From Synechococcus sp. (GTDB lineage: Bacteria > Cyanobacteriota > Cyanobacteriia > PCC-6307 > Cyanobiaceae): a stretch of 64,000 nucleotides of DNA. Position numbers and translations under genes: made by a program. The DNA is taken from NCBI GenBank assembly GCA_047284725.1, contig JBJBEO010000001.1, positions 2,232,203 to 2,296,202 on the forward strand. Direction: 5' to 3'. Of the stretch, positions 1 through 3,006 are shown in pieces. The notes beneath the pieces are model-generated. The model worked only from the letters and a program-made list of their open reading frames with translations, did not search any database and was not told where the DNA came from. Numbering within the stretch: the stretch's first letter is position 1; each line of letters begins with the position of its first letter.

Positions 1-207
1 ACATGCGCCAGCAGCAGCCTCTCAGGCTGCTGCCATGGCTCCAAATGAAGCGTTTGGCATCGAGGACGGGCTGCGCCCGCTTGCCGATCTGCGCCTCCGC
101 AGACGATGGGGCAAGGCAGACCTCTGCAATCTCATGCCATTTCCCCACTTGCTTTCAGGAACTTGAGGAATCCTTAACGCATTGAAGACCAGAGGTAACC
201 AACATCC

Positions 208-387
208 CTAAAAAATATGGGTTTCAATCACATCCCCCCTCTTGCCAAGCAGCTGAATGGACTCATACCCCGACGGCTCAAGCGTTTCCATCGCATCCTC
301 AAAAGCCATCTGAGCATCATGCAAGTAGTCAAACGTCTCATAGACCCGAGACTGACCTGCATCCTTGATCGTGATTGAATAAACCAT
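208..387 (-). CDS. small hypothetical protein (59 aa, not in the ORF track)
   Basis: Manual translation MVYSITIKDAGQSRVYETFDYLHDAQMAFEDAMETLEPSGYESIQLLGKRGDVIETHIF*; ATG preceded by AGGAA; protein-like composition. Confidence 0.55.
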   Translation of the reverse strand: MVYSITIKDAGQSRVYETFDYLHDAQMAFEDAMETLEPSGYESIQLLGKRGDVIETHIF

Positions 388-463
388 TTCCTAGTGAGCC
401 AATAGTCGACTGGGACATCCTCAAAGCTTTCGAGTCAGTGATCACGTCACAATCTCCTCAAAC

Positions 464-491
464 CAAGCCAACAATCGCAAGCCAACAATCG
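464..491. repeat. perfect 14-bp tandem direct repeat (CAAGCCAACAATCG x2)
   Basis: Copies at 464-477 and 478-491 read directly. Confidence 0.9.
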
Positions 492-797
492 GGTTGTCGT
501 CACAGAAGGTCAACCCCAAAGACACAGAGAGACTGGTGATAGCGATGAAGCAAGACAAGAGGACAACCGTCGATGGGTTGATCAGCGACCCACCCAGGAG
601 CCTGCGAGAGGGATCGGCTGGGAGGCCGAACAGACCGTCCTGGAGGCTGGATCACCGCAGTCTTGCGTCAATGCGCAAGTTCACTCATGTATCGAGGCGA
701 ACACTTTGGCTAGAACAACAGTGTTCAACGGGAGGGCCAAGAACACGCGTCGACATTGGAGACCCTGGCCGGCTCATTGGGGGAGCCGGTTTTTTTT
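491..797 (+). ncRNA. candidate structured non-coding RNA (possibly Cyano-2-like; family not confirmed)
   Basis: Nested stems AGACTGGTGAT(530-540)/ATCACCgcAGTCT(651-663), TGGGTTG/CGACCCA, CCAGGA/TCCTGG, TCGGC/GCCGA, CTTGCG/CGCAAG, GAACACT/AGTGTTC; several GCGA words; ends in an intrinsic terminator; overlapping ORFs are not protein-like. Confidence 0.6.
768..797 (+). terminator. rho-independent terminator
   Basis: GCCGGCTC-loop-GAGCCGGT followed by a T run. Confidence 0.85.
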
Positions 798-950
798 GGC
801 CGCCCCACCCCACGCAGGCGCCGTGAGCGAACGCAACAGGCCAATCTCGGAGTGAGGCTTGGACACCGAACCTGCGGGACCTGACAACAAAGGTGTTGAA
901 TCGAGCCAACTTCCGTACAGTTCGGCCATCGCATCACAACAATCCACAGG

Positions 951-2381
951 TTGAGCTCGACCAACCCACGATCAAGGCGGAGGAGCCAACCGGGACGCAG
1001 GCGGCAAGCCATGCGGGAACTCCAAGCGGAGCGACAGCGGGATCTGGTCGACCGCTCACGCCGTGCTGTTCGCTGGCTTCAACCAGGTCTGGTGGTCAAG
1101 CGCTGGTTGCTCACGTCGGGCATCGGCCTCGTCCTGGCCTTGCTCGGCGCTGCTGTCTGGGCCGATCTCCAACCGATTTACTGGACGCTCTGGGCCATTC
1201 AGGAATCCCTGAGCTGGATCACAAGGGTGCTGCCTCGCGGGATCACCGGTCCGTTGCTGGCCCTGATCGGCATCGGATTGCTTCTTTGGGGCCAGAGCCG
1301 CAGCTTTGGCTCGATTCAACAGGCCCTGGCACCAGAAAAAGACACGGTGCTCGTCGATGCCCTGCGGGCCAAAAGCCGGCTCAACCGCGGGCCCAGCATT
1401 GTGGCCATCGGCGGGGGAACGGGCCTCTCCACTCTGCTCAGCGGCCTGAAGCGCTACAGCTCCAACATCACAGCGATCGTGACCGTCGCCGATGACGGTG
1501 GCAGCAGTGGCGTCCTGCGCCGGGAACTCGGCGTGCAACCGCCCGGCGACATCCGCAACTGCCTGGCGGCCCTCTCCACCGAAGAGCCACTGCTCACACG
1601 CTTGTTCCAATACCGCTTCTCCTCGGGGACCGGCCTGGAAGGTCACAGTTTCGGCAACCTGTTCCTCTCGGCGCTCACAGCCATCACCGGCAATCTTGAA
1701 ACGGCGATCACCGCCTCCAGCCGAGTCCTGGCGGTCCAAGGTCAGGTGGTTCCTGCCACCACAGCGGATGTACGCCTCTGGGCCGAACTGGAGAACGGTC
1801 AGCGCATCGAGGGTGAATCCGCCATCGGCCATGCCCCCAGCCCGATCGTGCGTCTGGGCTGCCTGCCGGAGCAACCACCAGCTCTGCCCAGAGCCCTGGA
1901 AGCGATTGCCAATGCCGACCTTATCCTGCTCGGCCCCGGCAGCCTCTACACCTCCCTCCTGCCGAATCTGCTGGTTCCCGAGCTGGTGACGGCCATCCAG
2001 CGGAGCCGCGCACCGCGGCTCTACATCTGCAACCTGATGACCCAGCCGGGCGAGACCGATGGACTCGACGTGAGCGGCCACCTGCGGGCGATTGAATCTC
2101 AACTGGCCAGTCTCGGTGTGGGTCAACGCCTCTTCACCGCAGTGCTGGCACAGGAGCAACTGCCCGATTCAGCACTGATCGCCCATTACCGCTCCCGGGG
2201 CGCCGAACCCGTGCGGTGCAATCGCCAGGATCTGGCAAGGGAGGGCTATGACGTGATGGAAGCTCCGCTGCAAGGAAGCAGACCGACGGCGACGCTGCGC
2301 CACGATCCCCGAAGCCTGGCGCTCGGGGTGATGCGCTTCTACCGGAAACACAAAGCCGACAAACAATCCCTAGCTAGCTGA
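951..2381 (+). CDS. yvcK: YvcK/CofD-family (gluconeogenesis factor/GlmR-like) protein with N-terminal membrane helices; start may be ATG 1011
   Basis: GGGTG, VTVADDGGSSG, PPGDIRNC, GHSFGNL, GPGSLYTS motifs; usual position next to ndhJ. Confidence 0.9.
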   Translation: MSSTNPRSRRRSQPGRRRQAMRELQAERQRDLVDRSRRAVRWLQPGLVVKRWLLTSGIGLVLALLGAAVWADLQPIYWTLWAIQESLSWITRVLPRGITGPLLALIGIGLLLWGQSRSFGSIQQALAPEKDTVLVDALRAKSRLNRGPSIVAIGGGTGLSTLLSGLKRYSSNITAIVTVADDGGSSGVLRRELGVQPPGDIRNCLAALSTEEPLLTRLFQYRFSSGTGLEGHSFGNLFLSALTAITGNLETAITASSRVLAVQGQVVPATTADVRLWAELENGQRIEGESAIGHAPSPIVRLGCLPEQPPALPRALEAIANADLILLGPGSLYTSLLPNLLVPELVTAIQRSRAPRLYICNLMTQPGETDGLDVSGHLRAIESQLASLGVGQRLFTAVLAQEQLPDSALIAHYRSRGAEPVRCNRQDLAREGYDVMEAPLQGSRPTATLRHDPRSLALGVMRFYRKHKADKQSLAS

Positions 2382-2437
2382 GAACGCTCTAAAACTCCCC
2401 AGCCGCCAGAAACAGAAAAGGATCAAACGTTAAAACG

Positions 2438-2995
2438 TCAGTAAGCATCCTGCATTTCGTAGAAGTCTGGCTGCACATAGTCCTTGCGCAAAGGCCAGCC
2501 TTTCCAGTCTTCCGGCATCAATAACCGCTTGGGATGGGGATGTCCATCGAAGCGAATGCCAAACATGTCGAAGGTTTCACGCTCCTGCCAATCAGCCCCG
2601 CGGAACAGTCCATAGAGGGTCGGCACATGGGGCTCGCCGTCCCGCGAGAGGAACACTTTGAGGCGCACTTCACGCACCTGATCACCACCACCTTCAGCCA
2701 CTTCCGCCATGGCCACCAGGTGATAGAAGCAGACCAACCGCTGGCCAGGGCCTTCGTCGTAGCCGCCCTGGCACTGGAGGTAATCGAAGCCGTGGGCTTT
2801 CAAAGCTGCAGCGATGACCGGAAGGAACATCGGCTCAATGCCAATGGTTTCCACGCCAAGGTGGTCGGCAGGCAGGATCTCGTGATCGAAGCCCTGCTGC
2901 TGCAACCACACACTGACGGGACCACGCTCGGGAGCAGCCGGTAGCTGGCTCTCCTCAGCGAGATTGGATGCGGACGCGTTCGGGGTTTCACTCAT
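2438..2995 (-). CDS. ndhJ: NAD(P)H-quinone oxidoreductase subunit J
   Basis: [20 protein letters not shown]...GWPLRKDY; ndhCKJ order. Confidence 0.97.
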
Positions 2996-3006
2996 GGCGA
3001 ATGCCC

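Follow-up and report, generated by a model that had tools for sequence, protein, structure and literature searches.

A putative promoter-plus-small-RNA unit on a strain-specific insertion beside yvcK in Synechococcus

Upstream of yvcK in a Synechococcus sp. genome (2.58 Mb, single contig), positions 664 to 797 of the window, by which we mean the whole 64,000-nt stretch of DNA analyzed, are probably (at roughly 55%) a promoter-plus-sRNA unit. The unit lies on a strain-specific insertion, would carry an undescribed nonstandard promoter, and is present, at one to three copies per genome, in variable parts of marine Synechococcus genomes. The initial annotation had instead proposed, at 491 to 797, a single RNA of about 300 nt with an elaborate fold and its own terminator. 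As first written, that finding is largely unsupported, yet it overlaps a real and uncatalogued family of about 135 bp.

In the mechanism that we favor, 664 to 720 would hold DNA signals that an alternative RNA polymerase holoenzyme reads: a box at the upstream end, then TGTATC in the role of a -35 sequence, then an extended -10 element lacking the housekeeping T at -7. Transcription would begin near 723 and stop at the 797 terminator, and the resulting ncRNA of about 75 nt would accumulate and most likely act in trans, on any target it may have, via its unpaired conserved segments GGGCUAAGACCAAGC and UGAAUGCG. It would be coinduced with a handful of small-protein genes having the same promoter. 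The features of the locus are as follows, in window coordinates.

-519 to 906 (1 to 906 within the window), no strand: insertion of about 1.42 kb, its right part in the window, between a divergent ABC-ATPase gene and yvcK; junctions placed by comparison with the nearest relatives
208 to 387, minus strand: 59-aa ORF carried by the insertion and pointing away from the element; weakly positive codon score, the only positive one among the scored ORFs
491 to 663, no strand: 5' half of the earlier candidate; foldable, unconserved spacer DNA (z about -2.1 on either strand)
664 to 678, plus strand: upstream box GTCAATGCGC, where the family begins on its left side, with a sharp boundary in alignments; present in 19 of 27 copies
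688 to 693, plus strand: -35-like TGTATC, 17 nt before the -10-like hexamer; 14 of 27 copies have it so spaced, including 6 picked by a pattern that contains it
702 to 716, plus strand: extended -10-like element, consensus CAnTTGAGCCAnAAC, here CACTTTGGCTAGAAC, with the -10 hexamer TAGAAC at 711 to 716; position -7 is C, not T
723 to 797, plus strand: predicted ncRNA of about 75 nt, with a 5' hairpin with a GGRA loop, the linker GGGCYAAGaCCAaGC, a TGAATGCG box, and the terminator
767 to 797, plus strand: intrinsic terminator, the sole covarying helix
908 to 922, plus strand: yvcK promoter box AACTTCCGTACAGTT, with the canonical -10 sequence TACAGT at 916 to 921; exact in 6 of the 8 nearest relatives
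1011 to 2381, plus strand: yvcK/CofD-family gene (Pfam PF01933, E 7e-111)

The insertion has a GC content of 0.51 to 0.52, versus 0.59 for the genome. The flagged stretch was matched at none of 80 relative yvcK loci, which match only 892 to 933; the nearest named yvcK relatives share 87 to 95% protein identity and are mostly labeled Synechococcus, so we take the strain to be a marine Synechococcus. At 78 of these 80 loci, yvcK has the ABC-ATPase gene as its immediate divergent neighbor, with about 110 to 340 nt between the start of that gene's match and the yvcK match, and the other 2 loci stop at a contig edge. The TACAGT box is the sole plus-strand TAnnnT in 388 to 930, and there is none in 388 to 915. 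Since this box survives to the right of the insertion, the element is cargo and the yvcK promoter is independent of it. Either a stand-alone sRNA or a leader or attenuator of yvcK had been proposed initially. A stand-alone terminated ncRNA is plausible, for the last ~75 nt only, whereas a yvcK leader is not, because the element is missing at all 80 relative loci and a conserved -10 sequence belonging to yvcK itself lies downstream. A cis leader or riboswitch of yvcK was rejected on the family's surroundings as well. The next downstream gene, called with a crude codon model, is convergent in 14 of the 27 copies, on the same strand more than 320 nt away in 8, and uncalled in 4; a close same-strand gene (within 300 nt) follows 1 copy of 27, the one beside yvcK. 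We regard yvcK as merely a neighbor and think it somewhat better than an even bet that a unit with a noncanonical promoter and a terminated sRNA of ~75 to 95 nt was inserted beside it by chance.

The insertion has other contents. Homologs of the 59-aa ORF, which is acidic, occur in 3 of 400 genomes (L264, L265, and L266; 39 to 49% identity, one with internal stops), and their flanks bear no resemblance to 491 to 797. The ORF belongs to no Pfam or NCBIfam family, and its best score in the ESM Atlas, 0.86, is uninformative. A 141-codon frame with hydrophobic stretches (genome position about 2231820 to 2232246, minus strand) straddles the window start and is uncalled by the codon model. At 464 to 491, a perfect 14-nt repeat, CAAGCCAACAATCG, is present twice in tandem.

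Judged by sequence, 664 to 797 is a real family, with 27 aligned copies in two genera and in metagenomes, at unrelated loci. DNA searches of 100 relatives, of the genus, and of 400 genomes of the family found homology confined to 664 to 800, so the proposed length of about 300 nt found no support. The 491-to-663 segment had no homolog among the 100 relatives, its short matches elsewhere falling in coding DNA, and 380 to 670 was present in none of the 51 genomes of genus g5; 491 to 663 is spacer unrelated to the conserved unit. A sequence-only model built from 19 copies matched 9 genomes among 150 of the family, these belonging to 2 of the 36 genera covered, as well as 17 of 51 g5 genomes and 12 of 46 g1 genomes, with up to 3 matches per genome, promoter-only or doubtful ones included. 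The genome studied here holds a single copy, with no paralog of the element elsewhere in it. In a pattern scan of metagenomes, 14 of 48 matches were accepted as true homologs by profile score and by eye (37.9 to 145 bits, versus at most 17.8 bits for the other 34). There was no match in a phage collection, and none of three element patterns was found in a viral contig. A promoter for a cyanophage polymerase was rejected because all 40 viral matches to the short motif sit in open frames of at least 123 codons and lack the rest of the element.

The alignment holds 27 distinct full-length copies. Excluded from it were seven near-duplicates (L129, L130, L135, L142, L145, L149, and L169), seven partial copies (L111, L121, L158, L162, L172, L175, and L179), five promoter-only matches (L176 to L178, L180, and L183), and five doubtful matches (L163, L164, L181, L184, and L189). 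The last five, together with the weak matches G318 C7 (L104), L092, L094 to L098, L102, L103, L105, and L106, were dropped as chance. Glutamine-II riboswitches lie ~300 to 350 nt from three element copies (L004:1169-1226, L005:1931-1992, and L093:1062-1124), and those in L005 and L093 head a convergent gene for a 53-aa LTYRG-repeat protein.

Many of the structural details first reported for 491 to 797 can be seen in the sequence. An 11-bp stem with a 2-nt bulge can form between 530 to 540 (AGACTGGTGAT) and 651 to 663, the complementary pentamers TTGGC (706 to 710) and GCCAA (736 to 740) are where they were placed, and GCGA occurs four times, at 542, 585, 604, and 697. The intrinsic terminator, a hairpin at 767 to 791 with a T run to 797, was confirmed, and 767 to 797 alone folds with a z score of -3.66 (0 of 200 shuffles as good). 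No credible protein overlaps the stretch; the seven ORFs scored at 217 to 909, which overlap or adjoin it on the plus strand or are short minus-strand frames, all have negative codon scores. Nor is there a match to a known RNA family: Rfam was negative for 491 to 797 at E<=10, and no Rfam family covers the element in the window or in 32 homolog or control loci.

What was made of these details fared less well. Unusual folding is a property of the terminator and not of the remainder; the whole of 491 to 797 has a z score of -1.83 (4 of 100 shuffles as good), and 491 to 765, without the terminator, has one of -0.68 (49 of 200). The 526-to-665 domain, which had been chosen by eye, gives -2.1 on either strand. 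The 530-to-540/651-to-663 stem is outcompeted in the full 491-to-797 ensemble, where 526 to 537 pairs with 785 to 796 (P of 0.93 to 1.0 for 527 to 537). A conserved multibranch fold was not found: RNAalifold predicted no pairs on the first 19 copies and the terminator as the sole helix on 27, so that covariation is present in the terminator (two-sided changes in 4 of 6 pairs) and in no other helix. The pairing of the suggested pseudoknot is kept in 72% of cells in the 27 homologs, and 281 of 500 shuffles score as high. Four GCGA copies, against 1.64 expected, are within chance (Poisson P of 0.08). A long 5' hairpin (GCTCA/TGAGC) was rejected as unconserved across the aligned copies.

These observations bear on whether the locus could still make one structured RNA of ~300 to 380 nt, running from 491 or from ~412 to 418 to 797, or a yvcK attenuator in which 526 to 537 pairs with the 3' arm of the terminator. 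We consider this very improbable. Its helices can form, the equilibrium fold does pair 526 to 537 with 785 to 796, and a degenerate copy of the family motif lies at 395 to 405. Against it stand the z score that remains once the terminator is removed, the want of any homolog for 491 to 663, the absence of the element from all 80 yvcK loci, and the -10 sequence that yvcK owns. The 526-to-537/785-to-796 pairing itself is a 12-bp, G-U-rich, unconserved helix that, in the equilibrium fold, would sequester the 3' arm and U tract of the terminator. The degenerate motif copy (TGAGCCAATAG) may mark an additional, weak start, and 418 and 419 are where two contigs of a single study begin. Contigs assembled from sequencing runs labeled RNA (four examined, two of them flagged as probably DNA) start at 418, 419, 729, 736, and 738 and run through the terminator. 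None spans 620 to 728, strand is absent, one start is at an adapter end, and the runs were preselected for holding the stretch. At most, these contigs are a weak hint for a transcript, and we left them out of the evidence.

Returning to the promoter-plus-sRNA reading, we examined the parts of the 664-to-797 unit. The residues G709, A712, A715, and C716 are invariant in all 27 aligned copies, and the -10-like hexamer ends in C in all 27; this invariance of the block is partly by construction because 6 of the 27 copies were found with a pattern that fixed part of it. With the invariant A set at -11, the start would fall near 723, giving a 75-nt RNA at the window copy; as cut in the 27 copies, the predicted RNA spans 76 to 93 nt. 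Because 388 to 915 contains no plus-strand TAnnnT, an RNA ending at 797 needs a noncanonical start. The 664-to-678 box, which would span roughly -59 to -45 if transcription starts as predicted, is possibly an activator site. Just after the block, a 5-bp hairpin is kept in 84% of cells (22 copies), versus 24 to 57% when its position is slid; it shows one two-sided change only, and its covariation is not above that of shuffles. The TGAATGC-type box (TGAATGCG) is present in 20 of 27 copies and lost in the window copy. The window copy is thus degenerate, with a motif of 17.5 bits versus 25.3 for the best site, and it may be decaying. As regards a possible type I antitoxin, which would overlap or be complementary to a small-protein mRNA, the convergent genes end from 4 nt to more than 1 kb beyond the element, do not overlap it, and include no constant partner.

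Pairwise identity is 0.72 to 0.82 in the promoter block versus mostly 0.41 to 0.61 in the predicted RNA (TGAATGCG box, 0.77), and this better conservation of the block counts against the promoter reading. It fits a unit that is a relic or acts at the DNA level, either an insulator or a promoter and terminator that have outlasted a lost small gene, with a short transcript that has no function. The missing family box of the window copy and the location of copies in variable regions also fit. However, the unit has been kept and duplicated in two genera with conserved internal motifs, its terminator covaries, and its 5-bp hairpin persists in 84% of cells, so we judge this explanation quite unlikely.

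The block contains an ATG in 26 of 27 copies, a further point against a promoter and one in favor of a micro-mRNA for a peptide of about 10 residues (here MYRGEHFG, 687 to 713). The frame is exactly 10 codons long in 11 copies, and several variable columns fall at third codon positions. Across the family, however, the frame can be as short as 6 codons or stay open past the terminator, and it is shifted in 3 of the 27 copies. The ATG is lost in L160 and in the partial copies L158 and L179, the equivalent site reads TTGTATC in the 57-aa gene promoters, and the invariance was partly imposed by the search pattern. Such a coding role seems to us improbable.

The promoter reading draws on genes that have the motif and lack the rest of the element. 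A matrix of the 3' 20 nt of the block placed the genome's best site (25.3 bits) in intergenic DNA, 25 nt before a 56-aa ORF, and the block alone was found just before a 57-aa ORF. In five genomes, a pattern search returned 20 matches, whereas the reversed control gave 2. Of the 20, the element itself accounted for 5, sites before small genes for another 5, and long reading frames for 9, with 1 ambiguous. The motif stands 26 to 28 nt before the ATG in 8 of 9 56-aa loci, 5 of 6 57-aa loci, and 3 of 4 44-aa loci, the last gathered with a query one base out of frame and then checked, and a variant stands further off in the other three. TAnnnT is absent from the 110 nt upstream at all 19 small-gene loci. 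As a control, TAnnnT was found within 40 nt upstream of 24 of 49 tRNA genes; the corresponding figures were 2 of 27 for the element copies and 5% for random windows. In the 57-aa family, 4 of 6 putative promoters have TGTATC 16 nt before CATAAC; in the element, the spacing is 17 nt. Among 10 loci examined, the intergenic gap is wholly without TAnnnT in 9 and the upstream gene is divergent in 5, so that the small gene at these 5 needs a promoter within the gap. From these sequences, we infer that the block (TGTATC-N17-YANAAC, in extended form GAGCCAnAAC), the best conserved of the family, is a noncanonical promoter without the -7 T.

The near-constant 25 to 27 nt that separate the motif from the ATG of unrelated genes might just as well reflect a signal at the RNA level. 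On that account, the whole unit of ~135 nt would be RNA; in the leaders of the small genes, GAGCCAnAAC would bind a protein or sRNA immediately 5' of where the ribosome sits, and the copy that has no ORF would be a titrating decoy. The near-fixed spacing in three unrelated families, the sharp conserved left edge at 664, and the TSAATGCG-type boxes at both ends of the unit suit this account, and 9 of 27 copies begin 29 to 36 nt after a same-strand small gene with which they could be cotranscribed. Against it, no canonical promoter lies upstream of 25 of the 27 copies or of any of the 19 small genes, some of which have a divergent neighbor, and the 5' block is without conserved structure. We consider this alternative unlikely.

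The set of genes under the putative promoter would be small. In 29 g5 genomes, the exact motif had 49 matches, versus 6 for the reversed control, and it is present in 68 of 401 family genomes (22 of 29 in g5, 11 of 29 in g1, and 0 of 29 in g50). Of 30 exact-motif loci among the matches listed, 23 lie in frames of at least 200 codons, and an ATG follows 26 to 27 nt on in 4, all in g5. With the motif mostly in long frames and few loci at the ATG spacing, any real regulon would be tiny and confined to two genera. Genome-wide intergenic enrichment was absent (38 of 156 loose matches were intergenic, versus an intergenic share of 25.5%), sites of at least 10 bits were not enriched genome-wide (214, versus 177 to 189 in shuffles), and a broad regulon was not found in the genome itself, where the gene model undercalls (coding fraction, 0.745) and so blunts these tests.

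Several of the motif-headed genes can be listed. An unannotated family of 54- to 56-aa genes (1823920 to 1824095, minus strand; L274 to L282), in 9 of 46 genomes of the genus, is headed by the best motif copy. Others encode 57 aa (L176 and L269 to L273), 44 aa (L235, L238, L249, L267, and L360), or 64 aa (L245). The 57- and 44-aa proteins had no significant NCBIfam family, and in G049 and G423 less than 2 kb separates the motif of the 44-aa gene from a copy of the element.

Our first guess for the reader of the motif is a group-3 type sigma factor. The genome has ten sigma-70-type genes, which, reading their sequences, we take to be seven of group 1 or 2, two group-3-like, and one ECF-like. 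Group-3-like genes were present in 7 of 7 genomes examined and look broken in some. In three g1 genomes, the frames of both types are long and open; in g5 genomes that keep the motif, the broken-looking genes have open frames of 117 to 184 codons or an internal stop (L302, L303, L305, and L306, in three genomes). Because group-3-like genes look broken in some motif-keeping g5 genomes and none is headed by the motif, the assignment is a guess. Sigma autoregulation was rejected, the motif being upstream of none of 17 sigma loci. Three loci (L261, L321, and L328) share a GAGCGTGAA(T/G)GCAG box shortly upstream of one group-3-like sigma type, and the group-2 sigma genes at genome positions 971358 and 2390092 are nearly identical in their core sequence. 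Three 16S rRNA-like copies (genome positions 269923, 276601, and 1969836), two of them in tandem 6.7 kb apart, are unusual or an assembly effect.

By analogy, the element may work most like the multicopy Yfr-type sRNAs of picocyanobacteria, with a promoter like type 3; the comparisons that follow concern the available parts of the cited papers. Yfr2 and Yfr103 likewise have several copies per genome at unrelated loci and, in the promoter region, a motif that is conserved (PMC6191309, PMC5069720), and the 65 to 80 nt of Yfr2 (PMC6596454) resembles the predicted RNA size. As described there, the CGRE1 of Yfr2 is a palindrome flanked by GTTG/GTTA (13 to 14 nt apart) at -55 to -57 (PMC6191309), and by inspection the element box is not one. 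Yfr103 is a multicopy RNA of 290 to 328 nt with a strongly conserved fold and a palindrome at -29 to -58 of its start site (PMC5069720); unlike it, the conserved unit is ~135 nt, has no consensus fold, and is single copy here, and it is by this description that we set the two apart. The actuaton, an sRNA whose read-through drives the downstream gene, is also an sRNA unit newly upstream of a same-strand gene; however, its downstream gene is described as having no start site of its own (PMC6596454), whereas yvcK keeps a -10 sequence conserved in 6 of the 8 nearest relatives.

A relation to Cyano-2 (RF01702), which the initial annotation had raised because of the recurring GCGA, did not survive comparison with its model. 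Cyano-2 is also found in ORF-free DNA of marine Synechococcus (PMC2864571), and its linker consensus auGUaucgugaCGAaC resembles 687 to 702. That linker, however, is without GAGCCAnAAC, and the two conserved GCGA-loop stem-loop domains described in the available part of PMC2864571 are absent from the element. The locus gave no match even at E<=10, and the covariance model matched nothing in 1 to 3000; its best scores in the genome, elsewhere, were 14.4 and 10.8 bits, versus a 40-bit threshold and 98 to 110 bits for a true member in the relative G026 (L088:1-171). The Cyano-2 linker has a TGTATC...GAAC-like stretch of its own, possibly a signal in the DNA that lies between two distinct hairpin units.

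The putative promoter is likened to cyanobacterial type 3 promoters, which are read by group-3 sigma factors (PMC6495340; Synechocystis SigF, PMC2758279, both in part). In sequence and spacing only, it has the type 3 feature of a -10 distinct from TAnnnT with a conserved extended part. The J-box of Nostoc SigJ, GGGaAtacT in the available part of PMC6495340, keeps the T, whereas the family motif GAGCCAnAAC ends in C in all 27 copies. An NtcA promoter (GTA-N8-TAC) was rejected, with 0 of 27 copies (GTA-N8-AAC occurs in 13 of 27). The element thus lacks the defining features of Cyano-2, Yfr103, Yfr2/CGRE1, the J-box, the NtcA site, and the actuaton. Neither element nor motif was found in the literature covered, which took in the PMC5069720 supplementary tables and stopped short of Gierga 2012 and Voigt 2014, so an earlier Yfr name is possible.

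Taken together, these results put a smaller unit, both conserved and testable, in place of the claimed one-off ornate RNA. Should the promoter reading be true, the unit would represent an sRNA family new to Rfam along with a named nonhousekeeping promoter sequence, and four unannotated small genes are pointed to as coregulated. The reading makes a sharp prediction, in that start sites should lie ~11 nt after the invariant A. We also put forward, tentatively and as a possible but doubtful extension, that two marine Synechococcus genera have an undescribed promoter class (TGTATC-N16/17-GAGCCAnAAC, without the -7 T) that would be read by a divergent group-3 sigma factor and would control a miniregulon of three or four unannotated small proteins and a mobile, multicopy sRNA family of ~80 nt. 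Marine Synechococcus is the ocean's second most abundant phototroph. If true, this would be the first promoter and regulon for its divergent group-3 sigma factors, and the sRNA would be a new one, moving from one genomic island to another with its wiring already in place.
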